Shown here: positions 3,729 to 39,962 of the stretch, piece by piece
How the letters are laid out: each line of letters begins with the position of its first letter
How positions within the stretch are numbered: the first letter of the stretch is position 1
Sequence record: MK327944.1
DNA from: Escherichia phage vB_EcoM_G2540-3
DNA length: 64,000 nt
Direction: 5' to 3' (one strand)
Translations under genes and position numbers: made by a program
Notes under the pieces: model-generated
The model's input: the letters and a program-made list of their open reading frames with translations, nothing else
Told to the model about the DNA's origin: nothing
The model's database searches: none

Positions 3729-4744
3729 TGTGTTGCCTCTACATATAACTGATTTGCATATTGAATAAGTGCTTCACGGTCAGAATCAGTGATGTCTGGA
3801 ATTGCATTAATGTATTCTTCCATCAACGTCTGAAGAGATTGAACTTCAACTTCTTCACTGTCATCTGACTCGACAGAGTTATCAATCTTTGACACAACTC
3901 GTAATGAATGCACAACTTTTTCTAGTTCAGATTCGAACTTCGTCAGATTTTTGTCTACTTCAGTTACTATAACACGTACTGATAGATTTGTAAAATCTTT
4001 ATAGTCAATTTTTCCTTTAAACGGATAATGAATTCTACGATGCCAGGTAGTATTGTTTGGAATAAATTCCATTCGTTCTGTTTCTGTATCAAACATCCAG
4101 AACCCGCGAGGGTCATTCTCGTCACCTGCAGTTAGTGTCCATGGTGTCCCAATATATCTGACGTTAGCAGCCTCAGAGATAGTATGGAAGTGACCAGACC
4201 ACACTTCTTTATAAGTCTTAAGGAAATCAGGTTCAAGACCGTGAGATTTCATTCCTTTATAAAAATAAAATCCATTCAGTTCCCAGTGACCAACACAAAA
4301 AGAAGCAGAAGAAGTTTTTATGTGCTCGAGAATTTCACCAGTATTTTCTTCACACATCCAAGGAATTAAATCAATTAAACATCCGTCAAAATCTACTGTA
4401 GTAGGCTTATCATACACTTTAACATTAGGATATTTAGCCAAAAGCTCAGTAGAAGCATTTGGATGCATTACATTTTTGTAGTGGAGATCGTGATTTCCTA
4501 CAATAGTATGTAATGTGATTCCAGCGTCATCAAGCATTTGAACTATTTCACGGGCAAACTCCATAGTTTTATGTGTAATTGCTTTTCGCACATCAAAAAT
4601 ATCACCATATTGAATCCATACAGTAATTCCATTTTTCTTAGAATATTCTATCGCTTGCTTAATTCCATCAATTTGAATACCGCGAATCCACTCATCATCA
4701 GCTTTAACGCCTAAATGCCAATCACCCAAGTTTAGTATTTTCAT
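3725..4744 (-). CDS. 47: Recombination endonuclease subunit gp47 (Mre11/SbcD-like phosphoesterase), 339 aa
   Basis: Calcineurin-like phosphoesterase motifs GDWHLG, GDIFD, GNHD, GHWE; 339 aa equals T4 gp47; adjacent to gp46. Confidence 0.9.
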   Translation of the reverse strand: MKILNLGDWHLGVKADDEWIRGIQIDGIKQAIEYSKKNGITVWIQYGDIFDVRKAITHKTMEFAREIVQMLDDAGITLHTIVGNHDLHYKNVMHPNASTELLAKYPNVKVYDKPTTVDFDGCLIDLIPWMCEENTGEILEHIKTSSASFCVGHWELNGFYFYKGMKSHGLEPDFLKTYKEVWSGHFHTISEAANVRYIGTPWTLTAGDENDPRGFWMFDTETERMEFIPNNTTWHRRIHYPFKGKIDYKDFTNLSVRVIVTEVDKNLTKFESELEKVVHSLRVVSKIDNSVESDDSEEVEVQSLQTLMEEYINAIPDITDSDREALIQYANQLYVEATQ

Positions 4745-5345
4745 GGTGTCTTTTCCATCCTAATTTAGCTGCTTTTGAAACCAGTTCTTTAATTTTTCCT
4801 TTTGTCCATTCAGGACCAGGAGGTTCATGACATAACATTTGCTTAACTCCGTTATTATACCATTTTTTACCTTTATTATGTGATGAAGCTTTAAATTTAT
4901 TTGACCTTCCTTTTACATAACCTTCTGGAATATAAGGCAAAAAGGCAGATTTTCCTGTTAATGGATCATGTGAATGTATATTTCCTTTACAATTATGAGA
5001 ACCATATAATGGATGATTTTGTCCTTTATTATCTCTTCCAAATGAACCTTTTGGAGCAGCATATGACATATTAAAGAATAATGGATTTTTAACTGCATCA
5101 TGCAATCGTTGATAATATAACTCGCATTTAATAGCTTCTTCACGCGTATCAAATTCAGCTAAAATGCATGAATCAAATAAGTGAGGATTATCTGAAAGCT
5201 CTTTATTATAAATTTTCTTATACTTTTTAGATAAAACTGAACCATGATATCCAGCTAAATGCCTATCTAAAGACGTAGATCCAATATAAAAAGGAGGAAG
5301 TTTATCTCCGCTATATATTGTTAAATAAGTTATATATTTTTTCAT
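4722..5345 (-). CDS. GIY-YIG family homing endonuclease-like protein (Seg-like), 207 aa
   Basis: N-terminal YITYLTIY...FYIGST...R...GY.GS pattern typical of GIY-YIG module, basic C-terminal half; lies between a-gt and 47. Confidence 0.6.
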   Translation of the reverse strand: MKKYITYLTIYSGDKLPPFYIGSTSLDRHLAGYHGSVLSKKYKKIYNKELSDNPHLFDSCILAEFDTREEAIKCELYYQRLHDAVKNPLFFNMSYAAPKGSFGRDNKGQNHPLYGSHNCKGNIHSHDPLTGKSAFLPYIPEGYVKGRSNKFKASSHNKGKKWYNNGVKQMLCHEPPGPEWTKGKIKELVSKAAKLGWKRHHENTKLG

Positions 5346-5502
5346 ATATCAAGAACCGTCATTGAAATGCAAAATAAAATTATTGAAATAAACCCATCTG
5401 GTGTGCTAAAGAACCCAATCCAACATGCTCTAGTGAATAGATAAAATGCAAGAAAAAGTATCACATATCCAAGAAATATCATTATATCAAACTCCGTATA
5501 AA

Positions 5503-5520
5503 GCTAAAGGGCCGAAGCCC
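5503..5520. terminator. GC hairpin with UUCG/CGAA tetraloop downstream of a-gt
   Basis: AAAGGGC-CGAA-GCCCTTT palindrome with flanking A/T runs. Confidence 0.35.
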
Positions 5521-5521
5521 T

Positions 5522-6724
5522 TTATTTTGTAATAATGTCAAACTGTTCTTTAAAGCAGAAGCTTGAATCTTGATGCTGATACAAAAATTCATAAGCTTTT
5601 TCGCGTTCGCGGTCATAAAGAGTTCGGTCAGATGACAGTTCTTTAATACGTTCAAATGTTGATTCCATGTCATTTTCATCAAACCAAATGATACCGCTAT
5701 CATGCGAGGTCAAAGGAGTATTATCAACACGGAATTTTAAATTTTCGCCAGTAGATTTCCAAAATACCGGAATTGTTCCACATGCACCAAGCTCGAGATG
5801 AGTATATTCTAAAGAGCGCTGTAGATATTTTTTATCCAACTTACTCAACTGATAACCAAAACCGGATTTACTCATACGTTCAAGCATTTCGCTATTTACA
5901 TAACGGTCAAGAATTTGCGTTGGCAAATTAGGAGCAATTTTAATTTGGTCTACTTGATGAAGACGATAATACTCGTATGGAATTCCTTTTTCTTTAATAG
6001 GAATGAACGCTGGAGAACGTTCCAGACCTTCCATAATAGTACTTAGTCCTGCAGGTTTAAGATGTTTTTCATGAAAATCAAACATCTGATAAAAACCTTT
6101 CCATGTAGTCGTACGACCAATCCAACGGTTGATATTCATGTTAATTTCAGAAACATCTTTCCAGTAGGTTGATCGAACCTTCGCAATATCCATAGGAGGC
6201 TGAAAGTTATATACTGTCGGCGCTTCTTCAATATCATCAAACAGAGAAACTGTTTCCGGATACCATTCTTTCATCAGAACTTTATTAAAATCGCCATTAT
6301 CAGAATGGCTAAAAATAACATCAGCTCGACGAACAGTTTCTTCTAATCCCAAATTTCGACGCAAAGAAAGAGAAGAATGGTCATGCTGATAAACTACAAC
6401 ACGAACAGAAGGTTTAATGTTATCAATAATTTTTTTATAGTTATTAATAGTGTCTTCTTCAACCCAAGTAGCAGGAACTGAATTGATAATTAGAATATCA
6501 CAATCATTTACCAGCTTAAGTGTTTTATCGTATTCTTTTGCCAATAAAACCGGAATTGAAAATGATTTATAATCATGCGCGCAATTACGAGTAAATGATT
6601 TATCTTTAGCATAAACCAAAGTCACTTCATGACCATTTTTAATAAACCAATCACGTTGCTCGAGTGAGAATTTAGTTACACCACAACCTTCAAGACCTCG
6701 AGCCATAAAAATACATACTTTCAT
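5522..6724 (-). CDS. a-gt: DNA alpha-glucosyltransferase, 400 aa
   Basis: 400 aa; N-terminus MKVCIFMARGLEGCGVTKFSLEQRDWFIKNGHEVTLVYAKDKSF and C-terminus FCFKEQFDIITK match recalled T4 AGT nearly residue for residue. Confidence 0.9.
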   Translation of the reverse strand: MKVCIFMARGLEGCGVTKFSLEQRDWFIKNGHEVTLVYAKDKSFTRNCAHDYKSFSIPVLLAKEYDKTLKLVNDCDILIINSVPATWVEEDTINNYKKIIDNIKPSVRVVVYQHDHSSLSLRRNLGLEETVRRADVIFSHSDNGDFNKVLMKEWYPETVSLFDDIEEAPTVYNFQPPMDIAKVRSTYWKDVSEINMNINRWIGRTTTWKGFYQMFDFHEKHLKPAGLSTIMEGLERSPAFIPIKEKGIPYEYYRLHQVDQIKIAPNLPTQILDRYVNSEMLERMSKSGFGYQLSKLDKKYLQRSLEYTHLELGACGTIPVFWKSTGENLKFRVDNTPLTSHDSGIIWFDENDMESTFERIKELSSDRTLYDREREKAYEFLYQHQDSSFCFKEQFDIITK

Positions 6725-16611: not shown

Positions 16612-17540
16612 TTCAATATCTCAATAGCATTACGTAAACCATTTGCTTTTGCATTAAGAGCTTTTAACAATTTGGTGTGTTCTGCAATTTGGGCTTCAAC
16701 TTCAATCAAACGAGCATTGAGATATTCGCGTTCTTCACTCAGATTATCAACCTTTTCTACTTTAGGCTCTTTTACAACTGTCTTATATGTATTAGGGTTC
16801 TTCAGTTTAATTAGAATGCGTGAACTGTATAACATTGAACCATTATCTTCGGTTTCGTCATACATTTCCACTACGTCCATAATTTTTAACATCATGCGGA
16901 GTTTATAAGACAACGAACGAATAGTTTTGTTGTGCTTATTAATTTCTTTAGCTGTCATGGTGCCAAGATTACGTGAGTAATAATAAGGAACCTGGATATT
17001 AATTAATACTGATGAACCACCTGGCTTGTGTGTTACTTCATCAGCAATAACCCAGTCCTTAACATGAACTGTATTTGTACGGTCATCGCCCGCGGTAAAT
17101 AGTTTGCGAGCATGCTTAAAAAGCATATTCACTTGGTCATTGAATTGACAAGCAAATTTATCAGCAAATTTAGTTTCAGGAATGGTAGAAAACCAATCAG
17201 CCAAATGAGTCTTTTTAACATCATTAACAATAGTAAATTCAACCAAATCGGTTATAGATGTCTCAGATTTAATGAAGCTCGGCTTCATAAAGTTTTTAAT
17301 GTTCTCATGAGCTACAGTAGAAGATAACATACGAGAACGTTTAAACCATTCAAGCAAATTGCCTAACGAATGAGAATAAGCGTTTTGAGTATCTTTACAG
17401 ATATGATTTTCCTGACCAACATATTGAAGGAAATCACGAAGAATATTATTATTGATTACTGCCCTGTGTCCTATCTGATAATTACGATGTTTAGTAATAA
17501 GACTGTCAAAATAATCAATATAATGTTTACGAGTTTTCAT
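16608..17540 (-). CDS. Hypothetical protein, 310 aa, C-terminal coiled coil
   Basis: Long ORF with SD and 4-nt overlaps to neighbours. Confidence 0.5.
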   Translation of the reverse strand: MKTRKHYIDYFDSLITKHRNYQIGHRAVINNNILRDFLQYVGQENHICKDTQNAYSHSLGNLLEWFKRSRMLSSTVAHENIKNFMKPSFIKSETSITDLVEFTIVNDVKKTHLADWFSTIPETKFADKFACQFNDQVNMLFKHARKLFTAGDDRTNTVHVKDWVIADEVTHKPGGSSVLINIQVPYYYSRNLGTMTAKEINKHNKTIRSLSYKLRMMLKIMDVVEMYDETEDNGSMLYSSRILIKLKNPNTYKTVVKEPKVEKVDNLSEEREYLNARLIEVEAQIAEHTKLLKALNAKANGLRNAIEILK

Positions 17541-17548
17541 GGTGTTCC

Positions 17549-18460
17549 TTAAGATTTAAGTAAATCAACAATTTTAATTAACTTTTCACGCTCAGATTTA
17601 GCTTTACTACTCAGTCCAGATAGTCTGAAAATTTCATCATCATATTGTTGAATAGAAATATTCAGCTCTTCAATCTGTTTATTAAAATAATCAATTTGTT
17701 CAGAATGTTTTTCGTTACTACGAACTGATACAGGTTTTGTAGGCAATTTAGTTGAACTAGATTCATCCGGGCGATAAATTAAAATACAACTTGAACCAAT
17801 TGGACATTTTGCACCAGATGAATATTCTAATGTTCCGGCTTCTTTTAAAACTTCAAAAGCTAAACAGAGATGATGCCCCATATTAACATAATCAGTAGAG
17901 CGAGCTCTGATGTAATAATCATCTCCGCGAATACTAAATTTAAAGCATTTAAGGTCTTCTGTATTATTGGTCTTAAAAATCATTTGTTTATTTAGACCTT
18001 TAGCTAATCGAGCGCCTAATGCTAATAATCGTCGTTGATTTTCCCACAAATCTGCGATCATTTGGTCAAATGATAATTTCGGCATTAGTCGACCATAAAG
18101 GTCATATCCTTTATTATAATTACGAAGGATTTCACTCGCATTAATACGAGACAATGCTCCAATTTTATTAAGGGCTTTCATAATGCGATTAGATAAACTC
18201 ATTCCAGATCCGTTTGTTCGCTGCAAATGTTTTTCTAATCCAAATCCAATATCAACTTTAAACTTATCTAAAATTTCTGCATGAACATCTCTGTCAATAA
18301 CATTCAAATCCAAAGTTGAGTTAAATCTATGAAAAAATTTATCTGGCTCTGCACTGCGAAATACAGTCCATTCATTCATCATTTTTTTATTAACTAAAGA
18401 TTTAATTACTGCATTGACATTATTAATTACTACTGACATATTTTCCTCACTCAATTTCAA
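17549..18460 (-). CDS. Hypothetical protein, 303 aa, C-terminal coiled coil
   Basis: Long ORF in same array. Confidence 0.5.
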   Translation of the reverse strand: MKLSEENMSVVINNVNAVIKSLVNKKMMNEWTVFRSAEPDKFFHRFNSTLDLNVIDRDVHAEILDKFKVDIGFGLEKHLQRTNGSGMSLSNRIMKALNKIGALSRINASEILRNYNKGYDLYGRLMPKLSFDQMIADLWENQRRLLALGARLAKGLNKQMIFKTNNTEDLKCFKFSIRGDDYYIRARSTDYVNMGHHLCLAFEVLKEAGTLEYSSGAKCPIGSSCILIYRPDESSSTKLPTKPVSVRSNEKHSEQIDYFNKQIEELNISIQQYDDEIFRLSGLSSKAKSEREKLIKIVDLLKS

Positions 18461-18854: not shown

Positions 18855-18909
18855 AATAATCTCAATTAAAAGGGCTTAGAACCATTATACCATCCTTGGT
18901 ATAAAGCAG

Positions 18910-19437
18910 TTATGCGAGTACCGTCTTTAACCGTTCTTCAAACTTCCGAAGAGTATTCTGGCGTTCAGCTCTTTGCTTTTTGTAAGTTTCAATACGTTCT
19001 GAAATGAGAGTGTATCGTTCATTTACTGATTCTTTCATAAAATCAGGAATTTCACGAGAAGCTTTAATCTCGTCAAATTTATCAATAACAGCTTGCTCTT
19101 CAGCAATTAAGTTATCATACATCAAAATATCTTTCTTGATGAACTCAATATCTTCTTGAGTTACACGAGATAATTTAGATGCTTTATCCTTTTTGTACTG
19201 TTCGTTAGTATCACGAGACCAGTGTAATGTACGATTTTTATTCGTATTCTTGTAAATTTCTACAATACCAATCTCATCAATAATAACGATCCAATTCCAA
19301 CGAGATTTGTAAATTTGCCCTCCGTCAACCGTGATTTCACCTCCGATTGAGATGTCATTAAAGAACTTGCTTTGTGCTTCAGATTTAAATTTACCATCGT
19401 TGTAATTTACCGGGTTGAAAATATCTTTAGCGTTCAT
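18910..19437 (-). CDS. Hypothetical protein, 175 aa
   Basis: ORF with SD GGAGGA; early promoter cassette directly upstream. Confidence 0.5.
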   Translation of the reverse strand: MNAKDIFNPVNYNDGKFKSEAQSKFFNDISIGGEITVDGGQIYKSRWNWIVIIDEIGIVEIYKNTNKNRTLHWSRDTNEQYKKDKASKLSRVTQEDIEFIKKDILMYDNLIAEEQAVIDKFDEIKASREIPDFMKESVNERYTLISERIETYKKQRAERQNTLRKFEERLKTVLA

Positions 19438-19464: not shown

Positions 19465-19494
19465 ATAGTACCACAGAGGAACAGTCTTGTAAAC
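19465..19494 (-). promoter_or_regulatory. T4-type early promoter cassette
   Basis: Minus strand GTTTACA-17 nt-TACTAT followed by conserved ACAACTATCAACT leader. Confidence 0.55.
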
Positions 19495-28553: not shown

Positions 28554-28585
28554 ATTATACCACAGTCAAGAGGAAAAGTAAACAG
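28554..28585 (-). promoter_or_regulatory. T4-type early promoter upstream of regB-like gene
   Basis: Minus strand TGTTTAC then about 17 nt then TGGTATAAT. Confidence 0.45.
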
Positions 28586-29344: not shown

Positions 29345-29706
29345 TACAAACTCTCGGTGAAGGTACGAGCGATAACGTCGCGCTGCTGTTCCGGAGTCAG
29401 AGAGTTAAAGCGAACTGCATAACCGGATACACGGATGGTCAGCTGCGGATATTTTTCCGGATGCTTAACTGCATCTTCCAGAGTTTCACGACGCAGAACG
29501 TTAACGTTCAGGTGTTGACCACCTTCAATTTTAACTGTAGGCTGTTGCTCAATTTCAATTTCACGGGCATGCAAACCATAGAAAATTTCTGGGTCTACAA
29601 AAGAGTCCTCTTTAAAGGTTTTAGAGACAATAATTCGTGCTTGAATACCATCTTCAAAATAAATAGTACCTTTATGTGTGCCTTCAAGAATTTGATATGC
29701 TTTCAT
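29344..29706 (-). CDS. Autonomous glycyl radical cofactor (GrcA/YfiD-like), 120 aa
   Basis: C-terminal glycyl-radical domain [28 protein letters not shown]. Confidence 0.7.
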
Positions 29707-29712
29707 ATAACC

Positions 29713-30093
29713 TCAATTAGAAAATAAATTTATCCAAGATTGTTCTTTAATTAAAAATGGCTCAGAATCATATGCCATTAAACTCTGTGTGATTAGTCCT
29801 TTAAAAGGCCCATCAATAAATTCCATGGTAAAATATGGAATTTTATTCATTAGCCGTGCATTAGGAGCCGTGCACAAAACTCTGCATCCTTTGAATACGC
29901 CTTTTTGTAATTTGTATTGCTTGGGATAAAATTCGCTCAAAATGTTATTTTTTGCCAAAATTTCAAAATGATTCACCAATTTATTTTTAATAGTTTTTGG
30001 CGAAAAATAAAGATATTCGAAAAGCTGAGTGTCTGTCATCATTGCATTCCGATTACGAAAAACTGTGGACGAGTAATACCACCAATGCAACAT
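29713..30093 (-). CDS. Hypothetical protein, 126 aa
   Basis: ORF. Confidence 0.4.
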   Translation of the reverse strand: MLHWWYYSSTVFRNRNAMMTDTQLFEYLYFSPKTIKNKLVNHFEILAKNNILSEFYPKQYKLQKGVFKGCRVLCTAPNARLMNKIPYFTMEFIDGPFKGLITQSLMAYDSEPFLIKEQSWINLFSN

Positions 30094-30626
30094 TTAATAT
30101 TACAGCAGCAGTGTACAGTGTCAATATGGACACTATAAATCTTATCCATATCAGGAGATTTGACAGGCTCATCAATTATATACAAAATTCGCGAAAGCGA
30201 TAAACCTCTGAACTTGCTTCCTTTATTACCAATAAAACTGCGCACAGAATCAGTAAATAAACGAAAACGTATATCATCATTAGAATAACGCGAAAATTCC
30301 TTTTTAATATTATCTGCGGAAATTTTAGCGTAAGCTGAAGTATTAGAAAGAACAATAACTGTTCCACCGTCATACAACCAATTAGCGGCAAAATTAGTTA
30401 CTGCAGTTGATTTACCAGATTGACGCCCACCATCTAGTCGAAGTGTACAATACTGTTTAAGTAAGTCTTCAAATGGCGGGATATATTCGTTTTTACAAAT
30501 TTCTTCTACTCTAGCATCAGAATGGTGTGTAAAAGCATTCATCAGGGATAGATAAGGACCAGTTAAAAATGTTCTCATTTTGTTCTCTCTAGGTTTGGGC
30601 CATTCCATGGCGCATGAATTGTCCAT
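30039..30626 (-). CDS. Hypothetical P-loop protein, 195 aa
   Basis: Walker A-like GGRQSGKST. Confidence 0.45.
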   Translation of the reverse strand: MDNSCAMEWPKPRENKMRTFLTGPYLSLMNAFTHHSDARVEEICKNEYIPPFEDLLKQYCTLRLDGGRQSGKSTAVTNFAANWLYDGGTVIVLSNTSAYAKISADNIKKEFSRYSNDDIRFRLFTDSVRSFIGNKGSKFRGLSLSRILYIIDEPVKSPDMDKIYSVHIDTVHCCCNIKCCIGGITRPQFFVIGMQ

Positions 30627-30723
30627 TTCTGTATTTACCCATTACCGCACTTGGGCTCGACCTTATTACAGGTTGGCGGGAATCCCTCACAGAATCATGA
30701 GGTCCAGGTTATTCCCATGTTAT

Positions 30724-31140
30724 TTAAATGTAAATATTTTTGCCGTAATACTTATACCAGTGTGGCTTCATTAAAATTTTTTCATCGAGTCGTTGTTGAC
30801 TCAACTTAATAGCTGATTTGCATGGATTATAATCATTTTTCCATTCTACTGGAATATCGCTGATGTCAGGAACTTCAGTATCTTTTATACTGAACCCGCG
30901 TTTTAAGCATTCCGTTATAATGTCCGATTGACGCTTTCGCAAAAATTCTAACTTATCGTAAAAGAAAGTAACATGACCAGAACCTAAAATAAATTTAGAA
31001 GATATTTTAAAATCTTTAACGCGCTTACCGTTTGCCACATGCTTACGAACTATACCAAAAACACGCGGCAATTCACGGTATTCTGCGATTAAATGTTGAT
31101 CAGCAAGTTCAGATACTAAAGTCAAATTAATACGAGTCAT
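30724..31140 (-). CDS. denV: Endonuclease V (pyrimidine dimer DNA glycosylase), 138 aa
   Basis: 138 aa; [17 protein letters not shown]...[10 protein letters not shown] matches recalled T4 endo V with scattered substitutions. Confidence 0.9.
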
Positions 31141-31164
31141 TTTATCCCTCCAAGTAACTGTGAA

Positions 31165-31196
31165 TATACTATCACAATTCTAGGAGAAAGTAAACA
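31165..31196 (-). promoter_or_regulatory. T4-type early promoter upstream of denV
   Basis: Minus strand GTTTAC... TAGTATAT. Confidence 0.45.
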
Positions 31197-31199
31197 ACT

Positions 31200-31730
<531 letters not shown>

Positions 31731-32186
31731 TTAAAAGAGGCTGTTCATTATTCGGTAAAGTGAAGGACCCATCACATATTGCCACTGAGTACGAGGAATA
31801 AGAGCAAAAGCATCCATCTCTGGAATCATAACGCCATCTTTATTTTCAAAATAAGACTCGCAATGGCAATTTCTAAACATCTCATGCTCTACTGGAATCG
31901 TATAATAAAATAACTGTAAGTCTTTATTACTAGAATATTTAAATACACCTAAGTCTTCTAGAAGGTCTGGATTATAATCGATAAAACCAGTCTCTTCTGA
32001 GCATTCTCTTTTTGCAGCTTCCAGTGCATTCAAATCAGAACTTTCTACGCGGCCCTTTGGAATATCCCAGCGATGTGCCATCATTCCAGGCTTACGAGAA
32101 CCAGTAACCCGACCCATAAATAAATCTTTATCTTCTGTCATAAAGATAATACCAGCTGATAGTGTTTTCATTTTAATTTCCTGCAT
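31731..32186 (-). CDS. nudE: Nudix hydrolase NudE (e.1), 151 aa
   Basis: Nudix box GRVESSDLNALEAAKRECSEETGF; 151 aa; directly upstream of e. Confidence 0.8.
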   Translation of the reverse strand: MQEIKMKTLSAGIIFMTEDKDLFMGRVTGSRKPGMMAHRWDIPKGRVESSDLNALEAAKRECSEETGFIDYNPDLLEDLGVFKYSSNKDLQLFYYTIPVEHEMFRNCHCESYFENKDGVMIPEMDAFALIPRTQWQYVMGPSLYRIMNSLF

Positions 32187-32656
32187 TCAGTGATAAAGTT
32201 ATTTAAATTTTGAGTATATTTCTTTTCATCAAAAATCTTTTGTTGTCTGCGTAAACGCCATGGCATTTCAATGAACATACGCCATATTCCTGATAATACT
32301 GCTGCTGTAAAAATATTAACAAGTATAGTTAAAAGAACCCAATCTCCTATTCTGTCCATTGGATTTTTTATAAAAAAGTAAAATACGAACGATGATATAG
32401 GAAGACTAATGATATACCACAGAAGAACCTTCTTATCTGTGAACCAATCAGCATTCGTTAACTTAGCGCGACCGTTTTGAATACATACGAACTTATCATC
32501 TGTTACAGTAAATGGCTTAGCTGCTTGATATCCCATTCTAAACTCCCTAATCAACAAATTTTTCATATCTTCGGAACAACCATTCCAGTCAACTCTATCA
32601 ACTGAAATGCCATCATCCCCATCATCTAAATCATACCAGCGAGTTTTTAAAATCAT
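32168..32656 (-). CDS. Hypothetical protein, 162 aa, with hydrophobic segment
   Basis: ORF in e-to-tRNA interval. Confidence 0.45.
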   Translation of the reverse strand: MILKTRWYDLDDGDDGISVDRVDWNGCSEDMKNLLIREFRMGYQAAKPFTVTDDKFVCIQNGRAKLTNADWFTDKKVLLWYIISLPISSFVFYFFIKNPMDRIGDWVLLTILVNIFTAAVLSGIWRMFIEMPWRLRRQQKIFDEKKYTQNLNNFITECRKLK

Positions 32657-33015
32657 TTAATTTTCCTACAATCACTCACAAACTCTTTCATTGACTCATT
32701 TTCAATATAAGACATGTAGCTATTATATTCTTTTAATTGTATTTTGTAATCCTTTTTTCTTTGCCAATTTATTTTAAAATTATCATAATGAAAATATAAC
32801 ATGGTACCAAAGAATGAAAATAATGAAATCGCTATAGTAAAACGAAGTTCACTCCAAACCTCTGTTATAATTACTGTGCCGTCGATATTTAAAATAAAAC
32901 AGTCAATTAACAATCCAATAAGACTACCCGCAAGAGCTGTAAATACTGATACAGCAAGAATTAATAGTGCCTCAGGAAACGAATATTTGACTTTATTTAG
33001 TTTTGGCTTTTGCAT
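32653..33015 (-). CDS. Membrane protein, 120 aa
   Basis: Two hydrophobic spans. Confidence 0.45.
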   Translation of the reverse strand: MQKPKLNKVKYSFPEALLILAVSVFTALAGSLIGLLIDCFILNIDGTVIITEVWSELRFTIAISLFSFFGTMLYFHYDNFKINWQRKKDYKIQLKEYNSYMSYIENESMKEFVSDCRKIK

Positions 33016-33410
33016 CGTGATTCCTTAACAAATTTCATAATTTCATCAAATTCATACATATCTAGCTTAAGCTGGTGTTCCTTTTTAATCTTTTTACACT
33101 GAGCTTTCCAATCACGTACACGTTTACGATAATGTCTTCCTTGATACCAGTATCCTACCCAATTTACGGGTACTAATAAAAGTGGAACTATTAATGGAAG
33201 AATTAGCATTAACACAAGTATTTCGCCAGAATCAATATCAGTCATAACATCTAAAACACCTCCAATAATCAATAGAATTACAAATGATATGAGTATAACA
33301 GGACCTATTAACACATCAGTAGAAATTATCTGACGCTTTGGTTCATACTTCACAGGTTTACTTGGAAGGTATAGTGATGGTTTTGACATATTCTCTACAT
33401 TCCTTAACAA
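32997..33410 (-). CDS. Membrane protein, 137 aa
   Basis: Two hydrophobic spans. Confidence 0.45.
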   Translation of the reverse strand: MLRNVENMSKPSLYLPSKPVKYEPKRQIISTDVLIGPVILISFVILLIIGGVLDVMTDIDSGEILVLMLILPLIVPLLLVPVNWVGYWYQGRHYRKRVRDWKAQCKKIKKEHQLKLDMYEFDEIMKFVKESRCKSQN

Positions 33411-33972
33411 ATTTTTCTAGTAATAAATCACTTTCAAAATTGGGATTTTCTACAAATTTATCAAAAAGATCATCAACAATAGTTAAGATATTCTTTTTAC
33501 TAAGAATACGTTTATTTTCATGCTTCGTTTCAGAATCAACTATAAGAGTAAAGAAATATTTCTTGCCCTGAAATTTTACAGTAGTATCAATATAAAATAA
33601 ATTTGACTTTTGTAAATTACGTTTAAACCATGCGTCACTTAAACTATAAACACCGAGATAATCAAAATCGTCGTTTAAATAACAAACCGTCCATTCAGGA
33701 GAAATGAAATCAGTAAATTCAACATCAAAATCACACGTCAATGAATGAATTGATTCAATACTGTTAATGAGTATTCCAGGACGTATTAAAGACTTTTTAC
33801 CTCTAGAAAATCTTCCGGAAAGGCTTTCATCAGTTTCATATGAAGACCCCCAATAGTAATTACGTCCTTCTGCCATGCGTTTAAGAGCATTTAGTAATTG
33901 GTCTGGAACATCAACCTGTCTTTGGAACTCTTCAAACATTGAATTGAAATCACTTTGCATTTTCATTTTCAT
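33358..33972 (-). CDS. Hypothetical protein, 204 aa
   Basis: ORF. Confidence 0.45.
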   Translation of the reverse strand: MKMKMQSDFNSMFEEFQRQVDVPDQLLNALKRMAEGRNYYWGSSYETDESLSGRFSRGKKSLIRPGILINSIESIHSLTCDFDVEFTDFISPEWTVCYLNDDFDYLGVYSLSDAWFKRNLQKSNLFYIDTTVKFQGKKYFFTLIVDSETKHENKRILSKKNILTIVDDLFDKFVENPNFESDLLLEKFVKECREYVKTITIPSK

Positions 33973-34013
33973 TCCTATTTACTCCAAGTATAAGGGGCCG
34001 AAGCCCCTTATCA

Positions 34014-34607
34014 TTATTTCAGAGAATTAATGTATTCCTGAACATCGGCAGAGGTAGTTTCAACCCCAGAAATATTACCGTTAAAGGTTTCAACTCGAGC
34101 AAGGGTATCTTCAATATCAACCTTAGTCAGTGCTGCAATTTCAACTACATCATCAGCAGTACTAATTCCAAGGGCATTTGCTGCACGAGTTTCACGGATA
34201 TATTCCAATTTAACCGCAAGTTCTTGACGAGCATCATCTAACTCAACTACTTTCTTGGCGATTTCAATTCGCATTTCAGCATAACCGTCAGCCTTAGTAG
34301 TCAACTGCTCAGCTGTTCGACGATATAGTAAACCGAGTTTAGCATGCATTGTTACATCTTGGCCTTCGGAAAGAAGTTTACGAATTTCACGCTCTTTTGA
34401 TTCGGCCTGTCGATTCTTTTCGATAACAAGTTCACGAATACGTTTTTCTTCGTTAATAGATTTAACAGAAGCAGTTTTTAGATCTTTAATTTTATCAAGT
34501 AGTTTTGCTGCTGCAGCAGTATACTGTTCTTCGACAGATAGATTTTTAGCCATAGCAGAACCAAGTTTAGTGCGAATAAACTCAACAATTTTCTTCAGTG
34601 TGTTCAT
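34014..34607 (-). CDS. Hypothetical coiled-coil protein, 197 aa
   Basis: ORF; hairpin immediately downstream. Confidence 0.45.
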
Positions 34608-34708
34608 AGTATTTCCTTAGGTTAATTGAGATTTAAAATCCGTAGGAGTATAATACTCTATCGTCAAATTATAGGCTCATAATATCTCAATCATGAGCCT
34701 ATGTAAAC

Positions 34709-34984
34709 TTATTTCATATTATTGAAATATTCTTCTGCGATTTCGTCGTTATCATGGTAAACTTTAGAAGACAGTTTAACATAACTTTCAGCAGTGAACA
34801 TGTTAATCACAACCTTTACAGTATACCACTGACCGTCTTCATTGCCCATTACCGCATAAGTTTCAAACATCGGATGATCAGGACCGATAACTTTAATATC
34901 ATTCACTGTACGACCGAAATCTTCTGAAACACATTTCATAAAGAAGTTGAACAGTTCGCCGTAATTATCCATTTCATTCTCCAA
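34709..34984 (-). CDS. Hypothetical acidic protein, 91 aa
   Basis: ORF served by early promoter cassette at 35016-35045. Confidence 0.4.
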   Translation of the reverse strand: MENEMDNYGELFNFFMKCVSEDFGRTVNDIKVIGPDHPMFETYAVMGNEDGQWYTVKVVINMFTAESYVKLSSKVYHDNDEIAEEYFNNMK

Positions 34985-35015
34985 GTTGTTTTCTGTATCA
35001 GTAGTTGATAGTTGT

Positions 35016-35045
35016 ATAGTACCATGGAAGAACGGGGATGTAAAC
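35016..35045 (-). promoter_or_regulatory. T4-type early promoter cassette
   Basis: Same conserved cassette (GTTTACA-17-TACTATACAACTATCAACTAC). Confidence 0.55.
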
Positions 35046-35177
35046 CGTTTTGTGAAAAAATTTTTTAAAAAGTTTTAGGGAATTCTAGGGCAGGGAGGGG
35101 CAATTAAAAGATAGGATAATATATTATAAAGGGTATAAACTAAATGATGTCTAGAGAGGCCCGGAAAGGCCTAGATA

Positions 35178-35207
35178 CCAAAAAGCCCCAACCTTTCGGT
35201 CGGGGCT
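35178..35207 (-). terminator. Rho-independent terminator closing the tRNA/stable RNA unit
   Basis: Minus-strand RNA would form GCCCCGACC-GAAA-GGUUGGGGC hairpin followed by UUUUUGG. Confidence 0.5.
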
Positions 35208-35254
35208 AAGCCTTGCGGCAACCTTGTCGGGGTTCCACCTGCTAAGGCAAGTGT

Positions 35255-35410
35255 TTGTACGAAACGCCGGGATCGAACCCGGTTATTAAGTAGTTGACGC
35301 TACTCAATATTTTTAAAAGGCCATATCTCGACCATATCCGAACGTTCCGTCAAAAACGCTACTCGGCTTACGGCAAAGATATTTCCTCGAATCGATAATT
35401 CGGTGCGCCG
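35255..35410 (-). ncRNA. Possible small stable RNA(s) with tRNA-like 3' domain (comparable to T4 species 1/2 RNAs)
   Basis: No ORF; contains T-arm-like CCGGG-TTCGAT-CCCGG on minus strand but no canonical cloverleaf; located between tRNA-Arg and terminator. Confidence 0.3.
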
Positions 35411-35522
35411 TTTCTGCTGTGATATAAGGGGACATTAACAAAACATAAAGATTTATTAATGCCAGTCCTTAAACAGGGAACATCAGTCCGACGACTTACC
35501 GGTAGCGACCCGGTTTCTTGTC

Positions 35523-35598
35523 TGGTCGAGGCAGTAGGGATCGAACCTACGACCCAGGACTTAGAAGGTCCTTGCTCTTCCTTCTGAGCTATGCCCCG
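35523..35598 (-). tRNA. tRNA-Arg (anticodon UCU), CCA encoded
   Basis: Hand-folded cloverleaf: acceptor CGGGGCA/TGCCTCG, anticodon loop CTTCTAA, T-arm GTAGG-TTCGATC-CCTAC. Confidence 0.75.
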
Positions 35599-35601
35599 TA
35601 A

Positions 35602-36267
35602 TTAAAATTTCATTTTTCGACCTTTAAACCATCCTTCTGGAATTGGGTCAGTTTTCTTAATACGTTTAGAAACTTTTTCATCTAATGAATGAATCCACAT
35701 CATACCAAATTGGGAATTCTTTTCGCCCTGTTGGTGTTTATTTCTGGCGTGAGATTCTTTCATTTTATTAATAGTTTCATCTGAATGGGACTTACCCAAG
35801 AAAGATTTAGTATTTGAAAATTTCTCTCTATACTTAGGATTATCCCAAAGCTGTTTAAACCTTTCTGAACCCATTTTACGATATTTTTCTTTAAGGTCTG
35901 GGTCGTTCTCAAATCTGGTTTTAAAAGCGGCAACTCCTTTTAAGGAAGCTTCTTTCTTTTTATCCAAATATTCTTTAGTGTTTAAATGGTCCCAACCACC
36001 TTCACCACCTAATTTCAAATTATAAACGTCAGGGCGCTTTAAAAACTCTTCAGTCACAATATTCTTTTCTGACTCAAACATAGAGGTTTTATCGTCAAAG
36101 AACTCTAATATTTCTTTAGAGAAATTTTCTATACCATACTTGTCTTGGGCTCTTTTTAATAATTTACCAGAACCCATATATCCATCATCTAAATTTTCGG
36201 TAGAATGAGCGCCTATATAGATTTTATTATTAATTTTATTTGTTATTTTATAAGTGTAATGGAACAT
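35602..36267 (-). CDS. segB: GIY-YIG homing endonuclease SegB-like, 221 aa
   Basis: GIY-YIG N-terminus YTYKITNKINNKIYIGAH; 221 aa; embedded in the tRNA cluster as in T4. Confidence 0.75.
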   Translation of the reverse strand: MFHYTYKITNKINNKIYIGAHSTENLDDGYMGSGKLLKRAQDKYGIENFSKEILEFFDDKTSMFESEKNIVTEEFLKRPDVYNLKLGGEGGWDHLNTKEYLDKKKEASLKGVAAFKTRFENDPDLKEKYRKMGSERFKQLWDNPKYREKFSNTKSFLGKSHSDETINKMKESHARNKHQQGEKNSQFGMMWIHSLDEKVSKRIKKTDPIPEGWFKGRKMKF

Positions 36268-36308
36268 AAATATCTCCTATTTCTAAGAGTATTTATGTTC
36301 CCAAAATA

Positions 36309-36380
36309 TGGCCCTGGGTGGAATTGAACCACCATCTGGCGATTATGAGTCGCTTGCTTGAACCTTCCAGCTACAGGGCC
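36309..36380 (-). tRNA. tRNA-Ile (anticodon CAU, Ile2/Met-type)
   Basis: Acceptor GGCCCTG/CAGGGCC, anticodon loop CTCATAA, T-loop GGTTCAATTCC; no encoded CCA. Confidence 0.7.
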
Positions 36381-36386
36381 TTGATA

Positions 36387-36459
36387 TGCTGATTGACGGA
36401 ATCGAACCGCCGACGTCCTCATTACAAGTGAGGTGCTCTACCTACTGAGCTAAATCAGC
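36387..36459 (-). tRNA. tRNA-Thr (anticodon UGU)
   Basis: Acceptor GCTGATT/AATCAGC, anticodon stem-loop CCTCA-CTTGTAA-TGAGG, T-loop GGTTCGATTCC. Confidence 0.8.
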
Positions 36460-36466
36460 GAAATTA

Positions 36467-36553
36467 CGGAGGCGATAGGATTTGAACCTATGAGTCGCCG
36501 GAGCGACTGCCGGTTTTCAAGACCGGTGCATTAAACCACTCTGCCACGCCTCC
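36467..36553 (-). tRNA. tRNA-Ser (anticodon UGA), long variable arm
   Basis: Acceptor GGAGGCG/CGCCTCC, anticodon loop CTTGAAA, extended variable arm, T-loop GGTTCAAATCC. Confidence 0.8.
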
Positions 36554-36555
36554 AG

Positions 36556-36629
36556 TCTCCATACAAGGATTTGAACCTTGGACCTCCTGATCCCAAATCA
36601 GGCGCTCTACCAAACTGAGCTACACGGAG
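36556..36629 (-). tRNA. tRNA-Pro (anticodon UGG)
   Basis: Anticodon stem-loop CCTGA-TTTGGGA-TCAGG, T-arm CAAGG-TTCAAAT-CCTTG. Confidence 0.75.
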
Positions 36630-36641
36630 TAAATTAAATTT

Positions 36642-36713
<72 letters not shown>

Positions 36714-36719
36714 AAACTT

Positions 36720-36806
36720 TGGTACGAGAAGTGGGACTCGAACCCACAAGGAAATCATTCCGCAGCATTTTAAGTGCTGTGCCTTTACCAATTTGACCAT
36801 TCTCGC
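36720..36806 (-). tRNA. tRNA-Leu (anticodon UAA), long variable arm, CCA encoded
   Basis: Anticodon stem-loop CAGCA-CTTAAAA-TGCTG, T-arm GTGGG-TTCGAGT-CCCAC, 3' ACCA; G1-U72 wobble in acceptor stem. Confidence 0.8.
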
Positions 36807-36807
36807 G

Positions 36808-36880
36808 CTGGGAATAAAGGACTCGAACCTTTGCATCCTGGAATCAAAATCCAGTGCCTTACCAACTTGGCTAATTCCCA
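36808..36880 (-). tRNA. tRNA-Gln (anticodon UUG)
   Basis: Acceptor TGGGAAT/ATTCCCA, anticodon stem-loop CTGGA-TTTTGAT-TCCAG, T-arm AAAGG-TTCGAGT-CCTTT; separated from tRNA-Leu by 1 nt. Confidence 0.8.
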
Positions 36881-36905
36881 ATTATTAACAAAGGCTCTTA
36901 AGCAA
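36881..36905 (-). promoter_or_regulatory. Possible MotA-dependent middle promoter for tRNA cluster
   Basis: Minus strand reads cTTGCTTAag (MotA-box-like TGCTT) about 11 nt upstream of TAATAAT, immediately 5' of tRNA-Gln. Confidence 0.3.
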
Positions 36906-36977
36906 GAACCCTTGATGATAGAGGGTATTAATCAGTGCGGTATGAGTTAATAATAACAAATAATTCTTAAAGCATAT

Positions 36978-37271
36978 TTACCATTTATGATAATACATAT
37001 TTACGATGCATTCAAGACCCAAAGGATTCTTGAAAATATCATATTCAAGAGGACCTTTTTCTGTTTCAATAAAGAAATCAAAATTTACTGTATTAAATTT
37101 ACGGTCTTCCTTTACTAATTTAACTTGAGAAGATGAACGGTCAATGTAAACCTTTTCAACTTCAAAACATGTTAAAATGCCATAATCATCAATCAAGGCT
37201 TTAGCTGCTTCTTGATCATATTTATATCCATTTTCAATGGATGATACTTTCGCATAAAGAATCATTATCAA
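36978..37271 (-). CDS. Hypothetical protein, 97 aa
   Basis: ORF upstream of tRNA cluster. Confidence 0.4.
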   Translation of the reverse strand: MIMILYAKVSSIENGYKYDQEAAKALIDDYGILTCFEVEKVYIDRSSSQVKLVKEDRKFNTVNFDFFIETEKGPLEYDIFKNPLGLECIVNMYYHKW

Positions 37272-37684
37272 CCTTCATCAACAATAGTGTGCGTATTGGC
37301 ATTAACTATTTGCCACCAATCAAAGCGATTAAAACCATACATCGGTTTGTTTTCATTTTCTTTGATAATGTCACGGAGTTCATCTTCGGTAGCGGCTTTC
37401 GCTATTAAATCAGCATATCCACCACGAGGATAATAATTATCACCTGCAAAAAGTAAAAAGTTTGGTGTAATATTATTGAACTCTTCAAGAGTAATAACTG
37501 TTCCTGATGGTAGTTGAACAATCTCTACATATTTATATCCCAATTTTTGAGCAGCATCTACTGCTTCAAGCAAAGTATCATGAGCCCGTCCTATTTGGCA
37601 ATTTGGCTTTTTAGATGGATTAGCCTGATAATCCGCGTACACTTTATACATTCTATTCACCTTTAGAAATTTTATCCATAACAA
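37268..37684 (-). CDS. Hypothetical protein, 138 aa
   Basis: ORF with 4-nt overlap to downstream ORF. Confidence 0.4.
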   Translation of the reverse strand: MLWIKFLKVNRMYKVYADYQANPSKKPNCQIGRAHDTLLEAVDAAQKLGYKYVEIVQLPSGTVITLEEFNNITPNFLLFAGDNYYPRGGYADLIAKAATEDELRDIIKENENKPMYGFNRFDWWQIVNANTHTIVDEG

Positions 37685-37838
37685 TAGCGATTAAACCAAT
37701 TAAAAATGCTACTACAAGTGAAAACACATTTTCTGCTGTAGTCAATAATCCGCATATAAATCCAACAAACATTGAAAAACTAAAAGCGGAAGCAGAAATT
37801 GCAATAGCAACATTTCGAATTAATTCACAACGTTTCAT
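37653..37838 (-). CDS. Small membrane protein, 61 aa
   Basis: Hydrophobic span; early promoter cassette upstream. Confidence 0.35.
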   Translation of the reverse strand: MKRCELIRNVAIAISASAFSFSMFVGFICGLLTTAENVFSLVVAFLIGLIAIVMDKISKGE

Positions 37839-37857
37839 TTTATTCTCCTCAGTAGTT

Positions 37858-37896
37858 GATAGGGTAATAATATCACCACCCTATCTAAAAGTAAAC
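37858..37896 (-). promoter_or_regulatory. T4-type early promoter with inverted repeat around -10
   Basis: GTTTAC -35; 8-bp inverted repeat GATAGGGT (37858-37865) / ACCCTATC (37878-37885). Confidence 0.45.
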
Positions 37897-38130
37897 TTAT
37901 TTTTTACGAAAAATTGATTTATATTTATCAGCCCATTTCTCGATGACTTTTTCTGGTCCATAGATAACAAAATAATCACCAAACTCTTCACCACCGAGCT
38001 GACCGAAATTATCTAATGCATCACGAAGAACTCCATGAGGCATTTCGCCCATTTTATCTTTCTTGCCAATGTAAATAAACTCAACTTTTACATCAGCAGC
38101 TTCAGCAATAAATTCTTGATAAGTTTTCAT
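37897..38130 (-). CDS. Internal protein (Ip)-like, with capsid targeting sequence MKTYQEFIAE (start assumed at second Met)
   Basis: N-terminus MKTYQEFIAE-A matches the T4 internal-protein capsid-targeting leader ending in the protease-site pattern (hydrophobic-x-E); own early promoter cassette. Confidence 0.55.
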   Translation of the reverse strand: MKTYQEFIAEAADVKVEFIYIGKKDKMGEMPHGVLRDALDNFGQLGGEEFGDYFVIYGPEKVIEKWADKYKSIFRKK

Positions 38131-38167
38131 TTTATTCTCCAATTTCACATTTGTTTTGATAGGGTAA

Positions 38168-38197
38168 TAGTATCACTACTAAAACCCCGTGTAAACA
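38168..38197 (-). promoter_or_regulatory. T4-type early promoter for Ip-like gene
   Basis: GTTTACA at 38190-38197 (minus), conserved GATAGGGTAATAGTATCACTAC block and TTTAAAATAATTTCACAAAGTTGTTTACA upstream region shared with 38497-38528. Confidence 0.5.
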
Positions 38198-38208
38198 ACT
38201 TTGTGAAA

Positions 38209-38466
38209 TTATTTTAAATCTTCTAATCGTTTCTTCATCTTAGAACCGTTCTTAGCGATTTCTCCTGCATCAGAGCATAATGCTAAAAGTGCTTTAACTT
38301 TAGTTTGGTCTCCTTTAAAAGATGAAGGATCGACTGCAGCAGCAAGTTCTTTAATACGAGAAAAAAGACGCTCAGCTTCAGCTAAAGCCATTCCAAGCTT
38401 TACTTCCATACCATGAGAAGATTCAGTGATAATAGTTTCTGTAGCAAACTCTTTGAAAGTTTTCAT
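38209..38466 (-). CDS. Internal protein (Ip)-like, with CTS-like leader MKTFKEFATE
   Basis: Leader MKTFKEFATE-T resembles CTS; own near-identical early promoter cassette. Confidence 0.5.
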   Translation of the reverse strand: MKTFKEFATETIITESSHGMEVKLGMALAEAERLFSRIKELAAAVDPSSFKGDQTKVKALLALCSDAGEIAKNGSKMKKRLEDLK

Positions 38467-38488
38467 TTTTATTTTCCTAATTAATTTT

Positions 38489-38528
38489 GATGAGGTAATA
38501 GTATCACTACCTCATCAGTATGTAAACA
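38489..38528 (-). promoter_or_regulatory. T4-type early promoter for Ip-like gene, with inverted repeat
   Basis: GTTTACA at 38521-38528; 9-bp inverted repeat GATGAGGTA (38489-38497) / TACCTCATC (38508-38516). Confidence 0.5.
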
Positions 38529-38539
38529 ACTTTGTGAAA

Positions 38540-39236
<697 letters not shown>

Positions 39237-39237
<1 letters not shown>

Positions 39238-39962
39238 TATAGTACCTTTAGTGTATTTTTAATTTTAGAAAAAAGTTCTTCAAGAGAACCATCGTTTGTA
39301 ATTACTAAATCGCCATCACGAATTGGCAATCCAGCTTCTGTAATATGTGTATCATTGGATTTTTGACCAGGACGAACTACATGAATTACTGTAGCACCCA
39401 TCGCCCTAGCCGCATCCATTTCATGATCTTGACGAGTATCAGGAACGATATAATAATCATAACCTGGGTTAAATTTATCAAGATAATCTAAAGCAAATAA
39501 TTTTACCCAATACATGCGGTCGAAGTTATTAACAATCAAATCCGTACCTAGGGCTTGCATAAGACGACGGACTGACCATTGGTCTTCAATATTATTTATA
39601 ACGTCAATAATCTTGTTAAATGCTACGGAATTAACTGATTCTTTTCCTTCGTCATCAAAAACAAACACGCCTTTAATTGGGCTTTTACTATTAAGATAGC
39701 AAAATGCTTGTTCCATAATCGTAATTACTTCTAATTTAGTCAGATTTAAATTAGTCTCACGATCATAGTCAATTCCTTCAAACTCTTTACGAGTTAAGCA
39801 AGGATAGTCAGTGTTTGCTGCGAATACGCCCCATGCATAAGCCAATGCATCTTTAATAGGACCAGCAAGTTGATATTTAACTGCAGAATAATTATTCATG
39901 ATAAAATCTGCAGTAGTATCTTTTCCACTACGCTTTACACCACTCAAAAAGATTAGTTTCAT
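39237..39962 (-). CDS. 1: Deoxynucleoside monophosphate kinase gp1, 241 aa
   Basis: P-loop GVKRSGKDT; 241 aa as T4 gp1. Confidence 0.9.

Follow-up and report, generated by a model that had tools for sequence, protein, structure and literature searches.

This study investigated the interval between denV and the lysozyme gene e in a 64,000-nucleotide stretch of DNA from Escherichia phage vB_EcoM_G2540-3 (MK327944.1; hereafter, the window) and concluded that this spacer is most probably a natural "empty cassette site" within the plastic stretch from e to vs.8 of T-even phages. We regard the following account, taken as a whole, as probable: a common empty site for internal-protein (Ip) cassettes is held by a promoter/hairpin module of denV that serves as a recombination joint, in a phage with an altered Ip set.

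Results

The denV–e interval is noncoding and occurs in many phages

The results revealed that denV and e are separated by exactly 59 bp (Table 1), which bore out the distance of approximately 60 bp given in a preliminary description of this DNA. The ORF listing for 31141..31199 contained no ORF of at least 30 aa on either strand, and the plus-strand ORFs around the gap are located inside the flanking genes. A hidden small or opposite-strand gene was ruled out on this ground and because 59 bp can hold at most 19 codons. In the T4 reference (NC_000866), denV (64939-65355) is followed by ipII (65416-65718; 303 bp), ipIII (65834-66415; 582 bp), and e (66503-66997). The preliminary description was thus correct in placing ipII and ipIII at this position in T4, and denV and e are not directly adjacent in that phage.

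The direct junction is not peculiar to Escherichia phage vB_EcoM_G2540-3. A 159-bp probe centred on the junction was covered over at least 80% of its length by 247 phage records, including those of RB51, HY01, slur04, pSs-1, GiZh, and fPS-90, and denV, the spacer, and e were contiguous in 273 of the 595 matching records. These records bear on the question of an assembly or annotation artefact, in which a repeat-mediated collapse would have removed the ip genes. The cassettes lie between similar modules, by which an assembler might in principle be misled; nevertheless, the same junction was sequenced independently for all these records in many laboratories, and both denV and e are intact. We consider an artefact extremely improbable.

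Relatives fill the region in different ways. The order of genes is e, ipIII, ipII, denV in T4; e and a 157-aa Ip gene in T2, where no denV match was found in this region; e, an Ip5-like gene (93 aa), denV, and a 157-aa Ip gene in slur03; e, an Ip5-like gene, denV, orf84, a 104-aa Ip gene, and ipII in Mosigvirus SA79RD; e, ip5, denV, and ip10 in Gaprivervirus VR25; and e, an ORF, denV, and an "Ip4 homolog" in Gelderlandvirus CGG4-1. UGKSEcP2 carries another insert, of approximately 370 bp, at the denV–e site. Searches with tblastn gave matches to IpIII in 261 records and to IpII in 198; Klebsiella, Mosigvirus, and Dhakavirus phages account for many of these. The view of the locus as hyperplastic agrees with the documented plasticity of Ip genes in this region (PMC4122927, PMC12373910): T4 has three Ips in two loci, its relatives encode at least 10 others, T2 and T6 lack Ip2 (PMC12373910), and Ip content is among the differences between T4 and PST (PMC4122927).

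In the T2 record AP018813, the 157-aa Ip gene (2489-2962, extract numbering; DUF7412, phrog_3155) is labelled "valyl tRNA synthetase modifier," and small ORFs near it are labelled as tail or capsid proteins. These labels look like annotation errors that arose through similarity transfer.

Table 1. Positions of the denV–e junction, its predicted signals, and the Ip genes and sites considered in this study (window numbering unless stated otherwise)
Feature	Position	Strand	Details
denV (endonuclease V, pyrimidine-dimer glycosylase)	30724..31140	minus	138 aa; Pfam PF03013
e (lysozyme)	31200..31694	minus	164 aa; Pfam PF00959
e–denV spacer, putative promoter/hairpin module, noncoding	31141..31199	minus	59 bp
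Putative T4 early-promoter -35 element, GTTTAC	31190..31195	minus	AAAGTT just before; read from sequence
Putative extended -10, TGATAGTAT (TG, one base, TAGTAT)	31166..31174	minus	in hairpin loop; sequence and fold
Predicted hairpin	31145..31189	minus	-23.7 kcal/mol in 71-nt context
denV Shine-Dalgarno, GGAGGG	31146..31151	minus	paired in hairpin; 7 nt before ATG; fold
Promoter-like matches (13)	9583, 10022, 15033, 19494, 20933, 24377, 28583, 31195, 34708, 35045, 37896, 38196, 38527	minus	GTTTAC pattern scan
denV–vs.8 spacer, unoccupied Ip site	30627..30723	minus	sequence comparison
Single copy of repeat, third unoccupied Ip site (e.8–rnaC)	35175..35210	minus	comparison with G9062
Ip6-family gene	37897..38130	minus	77 aa; N-terminus MKTYQEFIAEA; phrog_8111 "internal virion protein," E 1.8e-50
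Ip5–Ip6 spacer	38131..38208	minus	same architecture as denV module
Ip5-family gene	38209..38466	minus	85 aa; N-terminus MKTFKEFATE; phrog_3499 "internal head protein," E 7.8e-50
57B–Ip5 spacer	38467..38539	minus	same architecture: AAAGTTGTTTAC, then hairpin around GTGATACTAT
31-nt direct repeat bracketing the Ip5 cassette, GATTTAAAATAATTTCACAAAGTTGTTTACA	38521..38551 and 38190..38220		
T4 spacers ipIII–ipII and e–ipIII	4720-4834 and 5417-5503 (T4 extract numbering)		compared with window 30724-31260

The window carries Ip5- and Ip6-family genes beside 57B

The preliminary description had also pointed to Ip-like genes near 57B, and two such genes are indeed located just downstream of 57B (38540..38995). 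We scanned the 64-kb window for the capsid-targeting (CTS) N-terminus, taking a targeting sequence to be N-terminal and to end at the gp21 cleavage site (L/I-x-E), and obtained only these two ORFs. Each carries a targeting N-terminus of about 10 aa resembling MKTYQEFIAE and matches a recognised Ip family, which marks both as probable Ip genes. Homologues of phrog_8111 are annotated as Ip6 or IpVI in VR25 and PST, those of phrog_3499 are annotated as Ip5, and T4 Ip1, Ip2, and Ip3 are assigned to phrog_4363, phrog_7857, and phrog_5341, respectively. The mechanical ORF start of the Ip6-family gene is a GTG at 38148.

The first 11 aa of the Ip6-like protein are those of T4 IpII. Beyond the targeting peptide of 10-19 aa, tblastn at E values up to 10 detected no similarity to Ip1, Ip2, or Ip3, either in the window or across the complete genome of Escherichia phage vB_EcoM_G9062 (hereafter, G9062), and blastn with Ip2 and Ip3 matched only 32-44 nt of CTS-coding sequence. 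These findings support the earlier claim that the Ip complement of this phage differs from that of T4: the ORFs of the window belong to the Ip5 and Ip6 families and not to Ip1, Ip2, or Ip3. From G9062, the closest complete relative at this locus, we infer that Ip1, Ip2, and Ip3 are absent from the remainder of the roughly 168-kb genome as well.

The Ip5-like protein of the window shares 50% identity (E 4e-26) with the 93-aa Ip encoded between e and denV in slur03 and SA79RD; therefore, one family occupies either locus. The window is "empty" at three Ip sites that are filled in relatives, namely e–denV, denV–vs.8, and e.8–rnaC. The denV–vs.8 site contains the 157-aa Ip gene in slur03, the "Ip4 homolog" in CGG4-1, and ip10 in VR25. 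At the e.8–rnaC site, G9062 carries a terminator-like sequence in duplicate, and the two copies flank two extra CTS-bearing ORFs; the window contains this sequence once (35175..35210).

The extra ORFs of G9062 encode 187 aa (MKTYAEFLTEA) and 157 aa (MKSYTQFLNEA) and are located between the e.8 homologue and the tRNA cluster (17201-18363, numbering of the G9062 extract); the window has no such ORFs. G9062 also contains a 54-aa ORF by the primase gene (18878-19042, extract numbering) with the Ip-like start MKTYKEFIKE, at a locus that is not usually counted as an Ip locus.

Several further features of the window were recorded. A relatively GC-rich element of approximately 100 bp is located between denV and vs.8 (30627-30723, minus strand, including GGACCTCATGATTCTGTGAGGGATTCCCGCCAACCTG and GGTCGAGCCCAAGTGCGG); in T2 and slur03, a conserved counterpart follows the 157-aa Ip gene, and G9062 annotates a 33-aa ORF within the element. 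The small-RNA/tRNA region at 35258-36880 resembles that of T4, with rnaC 98.6% and rnaD 87% identical. In this region, a GIY-YIG homing endonuclease gene that resembles segB (35602..36267; 82.6% nucleotide identity to the T4 gene) separates tRNA-Arg from seven other tRNAs, and ARAGORN labels the tRNA with the CAU anticodon "Met" where T4 annotates tRNA-Ile. An ORF of the size of an alpha-glucosyltransferase gene is present at 5522..6724.

The spacer contains a putative T4-type early promoter

On the minus strand, the spacer reads AGTT-GTTTAC-TTTCTCCTAGAATTG-TGA-TAGTAT-ATTCACAGTTACTTGGAGGGATAAA-ATG. It therefore displays, on the early-transcribed strand, the sequence features of a T4 early promoter, namely GTTTAC, a gap of about 17 nt, and TAnnAT after TG. 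The distance from GTTTAC to TAGTAT is 18 nt, or 17 nt when the -35 hexamer is taken as TTTACT, and only one mismatch separates the spacer from the consensus TTTACW-N17-TAYWAT of T4/PST PeSL (promoter-early stem-loop) elements (PMC4122927). A generic sigma-70 scan of 29500-33500 did not list this promoter, which has 8 of 12 matches to TTGACA/TATAAT; such a scan is uninformative for T4-specific promoters, and the T4-consensus pattern was used in its place. The pattern GTTTAC-N16-18-TAnnAT returned 13 matches in the window, all of them on the minus strand, which is the early-transcribed one (Table 1). In addition, the 12-nt head of the module, AAAGTTGTTTAC, occurs 5 times in the window against 0.75 expected. 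The T4-specific consensus, together with promoter annotations in fPS-90 and SA79RD, suggests that the spacer contains a T4-type early promoter.

The denV leader is predicted to fold into a conserved hairpin

The hairpin predicted in the spacer had a z-score of -4.93, and none of 200 shuffles folded as well. Its 5' arm (31172..31189) overlaps the promoter spacer, the -10 element is located in the loop, and the denV Shine-Dalgarno (SD) sequence is located in the 3' arm. In the predicted fold, the hairpin accordingly pairs the SD sequence and has the putative promoter inside it. The motif GGAG is a cleavage motif of RegB (PMC3014915).

Equivalent hairpins were found in the denV leaders of six other phages, namely T4, slur03, W143, VR25, Ursula, and CGG4-1, which span at least five genera (the Ursula record is without a genus). 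Individual folds with shuffles gave the seven leaders z-scores of -3.3 to -6.0. Each leader has the -35 element, which is GTTTAC throughout except for GTGTAC in Ursula, followed at once by a 5' arm that contains CUCC; the -10 element is in the loop, and GGAG is paired in the 3' arm in all seven, 6-9 nt before the AUG. The inner stems vary yet stay complementary (CUGUAG/CUACAG, CAAG/CUUG, and GUGUUGAUG/CAUCAACAU). The leader design is thus conserved with compensatory changes across at least five genera, the covariation having been judged visually, fold by fold. With the seven leaders aligned by MAFFT, RNAalifold returned zero pairs, the arms being misaligned by indels, and an Rfam search of 30400-31400 at E values up to 1 yielded no family match for the spacer or the GC-rich element after denV.

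Strong hairpins are present at several of the 13 promoter-like sites. Those at 19494, upstream of the ORF 18910..19437, and at 28583, upstream of regB, both have folding energies of approximately -20 kcal/mol and pair the downstream GGAG Shine-Dalgarno, as does the denV leader. Early leaders in the window seem to share an SD-pairing promoter hairpin as a general design.

A strong hairpin that begins 11 nt past the stop codon of e might instead be mainly a terminator or a 3'-stabilising structure for e transcripts, the promoter-like hexamers being incidental. SA79RD annotates the homologous element as a rho-independent terminator, and PeSLs have been described as composite promoter-terminator motifs (PMC4122927). 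However, no U-tract follows the stem (GGGAUAAAAUG), which is therefore no canonical terminator, and a terminator scan of 29500-33500 reported none in the gap. The hairpin also accompanies denV rather than e: when an Ip gene intervenes, the hairpin is located between the Ip gene and denV. Moreover, the -35 hexamer and the -10 in the loop are retained in all seven leaders, with the SD sequence always in the 3' arm. We consider a mainly terminating or stabilising role improbable and favor a denV leader with its own promoter.

The spacer contains a mosaic boundary, and T4 spacers retain fragments of e and denV

Collinearity with T4 and T2 covers the last approximately 27 nt of e and the 47 nt that follow its stop codon (local alignments of 93/94 nt), and the homology ends at ...TTACTTG, between the -10 element and the SD sequence. 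In amino acid identity to T4, DenV (77.5%) is a divergent allele, whereas the adjacent lysozyme reaches 97%, NudE 93%, and 57B 99%. The difference between DenV and the lysozyme therefore places a sharp mosaic boundary within the 59-bp spacer. In Mosigvirus SA79RD, the same 55 bp, 92-94% identical, are located between ipII and vs.8, where they are annotated as a promoter plus a (rho-independent) terminator.

The window is a Tequatrovirus segment. Over 30000-32800, its identity is 100% with G9062 and 99.8% with DalCa, JK08, and others, whereas the best match to 32800-39300 in a search of the phage collection is 97% (vB_EcoM_112); therefore, the window is a mosaic.

The spacers around the T4 ip genes were compared with the denV–e region of the window. 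In T4, the sequence between ipIII and ipII includes part of the 3' end of e (ACTTGGGACGC...), a module, and 19 of 19 nt of the 3' end of denV; this denV end together with the Ip ribosome-binding site matches slur03 at 27 of 27 positions. The T4 e–ipIII spacer contains a shorter remnant of the same denV 3' end. Because fragments of the ends of e and denV are present in its ip spacers, the T4 layout looks derived and does not appear to be the baseline for a loss. These sequences suggest that it is a mosaic derived from an e-module-denV-ip scaffold through events deleting copies of denV.

The opposite history would be a secondary loss, in which the ip genes of a T4-like e-ipIII-ipII-denV ancestor were excised between modules and the 59 bp are a hybrid scar. 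The spacer has a hybrid form, with 5' 47 nt that are those found between e and ipIII in T4 and a 3' end that resembles the denV leaders of other phages, and T4 has three similar modules around ipIII and ipII. IpIII is widespread across genera, in several of which it adjoins e. Experiments with RB49/phi1 have demonstrated excision between flanking PeSLs (PMC2839356), and T4 readily loses ipIII in laboratory evolution (PMC9391042). Nevertheless, the gap between 77.5% for DenV and 97% for the lysozyme implies that the denV of the window is not the T4 denV moved beside e, and the e-end, module, and denV-end pieces in the T4 ip spacers point to an e-module-denV-ip state before the T4 layout. In addition, four genera have an Ip5-like gene, and not ipIII, between e and denV. 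A secondary loss is rather unlikely, although its probability is not negligible; we favor the reading in which the empty site is not a scar of the T4 arrangement.

Within the 64-kb window, the module is single-copy at up to 3 mismatches, and only its 12-nt head recurs. It therefore has no close partner there for intragenomic recombination. The spacers around the Ip5- and Ip6-family genes, including that between Ip6 and the next gene, share its architecture. The Ip5 cassette is bracketed by a 31-nt direct repeat (Table 1) that consists of the 3' ends of 57B and the Ip5 gene plus AAAGTTGTTTACA and includes the following -35 element. The 57B and Ip5 proteins both end in DLK.

Discussion

A mechanism can be proposed for the denV leader. 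RNA polymerase would start approximately 7 nt after the -10 element, near 31159, and the resulting mRNA would not contain the 5' arm of the hairpin, leaving the SD sequence of denV free on transcripts from its own early promoter. Read-through transcripts from e would carry both arms, and the SD sequence would be folded away. DenV would then be translated from its own early transcripts only and not from read-through e mRNA. The module, comprising a stop codon, AAAGTTGTTTAC, a hairpin around the -10 element, an SD sequence, and an ATG, may also act as a recombination joint for the insertion, deletion, or exchange of Ip genes. A joint of this kind is suggested by the break in T4/window homology inside the module and by the presence of modules, and of short pieces of adjacent genes, on both sides of Ip cassettes. 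From the comparisons described herein, we infer that the promoter is active, that the SD sequence is masked, that recombination takes place at the module, and that host range is affected.

A more ambitious reading joins these points, and we put it forward tentatively, as a possibility that is more doubtful than the account as a whole. It holds that the denV hairpin may be both a translational gate and the preferred crossover site of a system for cassette exchange, that the e-module-denV arrangement may be near the ancestral scaffold, and that T4 may be atypical. The T4 order would, in the same reading, result from two module-mediated insertions that deleted copies of denV, of which the e and denV 3'-end fragments in the T4 spacers would be the traces, and Ip5 and Ip6 would be inhibitors of GmrSD-type or other first-line defences.

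The Ip set matters because Ips, which T4-type phages pack into the head and process with gp21, are injected with the phage DNA. Each of T4 Ip1, Ip2, and Ip3 acts against a single, distinct GmrSD type IV restriction enzyme, which it inhibits (PMC12373910), and Ip3 is needed on ECOR17 (PMC9391042). Since each of these proteins disarms one GmrSD, the set of Ip cassettes is a direct predictor of T-even host range. The GmrSD enzymes that Ip1, Ip2, and Ip3 target would thus be expected to restrict a phage that carries only Ip5 and Ip6, provided that its DNA is glucosyl-hmC modified. We predict that Escherichia phage vB_EcoM_G2540-3 lacks the T4 Ip set, relies on Ip5 and Ip6, and would have a different spectrum of GmrSD resistance; presumably, it counters other defence systems instead. 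The difference in Ip set is useful for annotation and for the choice of therapeutic phages.

The empty site represents a type of cassette polymorphism that is already familiar, in a region of recognised plasticity, and involves no new principle. Variable Ip content, the plasticity of the e–denV region, and shuffling mediated by promoter/stem-loop elements have already been described, and the mildly new points are confined to how the junction is built and to the remnants that the T4 spacers contain.

Comparison with known systems

The closest reference for the locus is the ipII-ipIII region of T4. The genes denV, e, nudE, and vs.8 have the same order and strand in the window, and e and the first 47 nt past its stop codon are nearly identical. 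However, T4 has a 1.15-kb ipIII/ipII segment that the window lacks, and the leaders differ from the -10 element to the ATG. Tequatroviruses with the direct junction (RB51, HY01, pSs-1, slur04, fPS-90, HP3, G9062, and DalCa) have the same or nearly the same junction sequence, with 97-100% identity over 159 bp, and many of them also have Ip5 and Ip6 beside 57B, as does the window. Outside the locus, the window is identical to none of them, and it lacks the two extra CTS ORFs of G9062. In comparison with T4 Ip1-Ip3, the Ip ORFs of the window have the same targeting peptide and small size, and one is located at the ipI position by 57B, but they belong to other families, with no likeness past the targeting peptide.

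The spacer also resembles the PeSLs, which are likewise short intergenic modules of a -35 element, a -10 element, a stem-loop, an SD sequence, and an ATG at the boundaries of indels and replacements in plastic regions (PMC2839356, PMC4122927). All these elements, with the AT-rich lead of a PeSL, occur in the spacer, albeit in another arrangement. The spacer is also placed as a PeSL would be, given that the T4/T2 homology breaks inside it, that it occurs in another gene context in SA79RD, and that modules bracket the Ip5 and Ip6 cassettes. Its breakpoint between the -10 element and the SD sequence corresponds to the PeSL mini-circles of RB49/phi1, in which the crossovers range from the -10 element to the SD sequence or ATG (PMC2839356). 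The multi-copy character of PeSLs was not observed, the 64-kb window containing one copy of the module at up to 3 mismatches. The stem-loop differs as well: in the spacer it overlaps the promoter, encloses the -10 element, and pairs the SD sequence, whereas the published PeSL stem-loop (PST) is drawn upstream of the promoter (PMC4122927).

For the predicted regulation, the nearest parallels are T4 e, soc, 49, and I-TevI, whose leader hairpins mask the SD sequence and have a promoter inside; the ribosome-binding site is masked in the long transcripts, and the transcripts from the internal promoter are translated (PMC3014915). The modelled denV leader is similar, in that its SD sequence would be held in a helix whose 5' strand would be missing from transcripts of the internal promoter. 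The internal promoter of e, soc, 49, and I-TevI is late (TATAAATA), and the hairpin blocks early translation. In contrast, the putative internal promoter of the denV leader is of the early type, and by analogy the hairpin would serve to prevent denV translation on e transcripts that read through.
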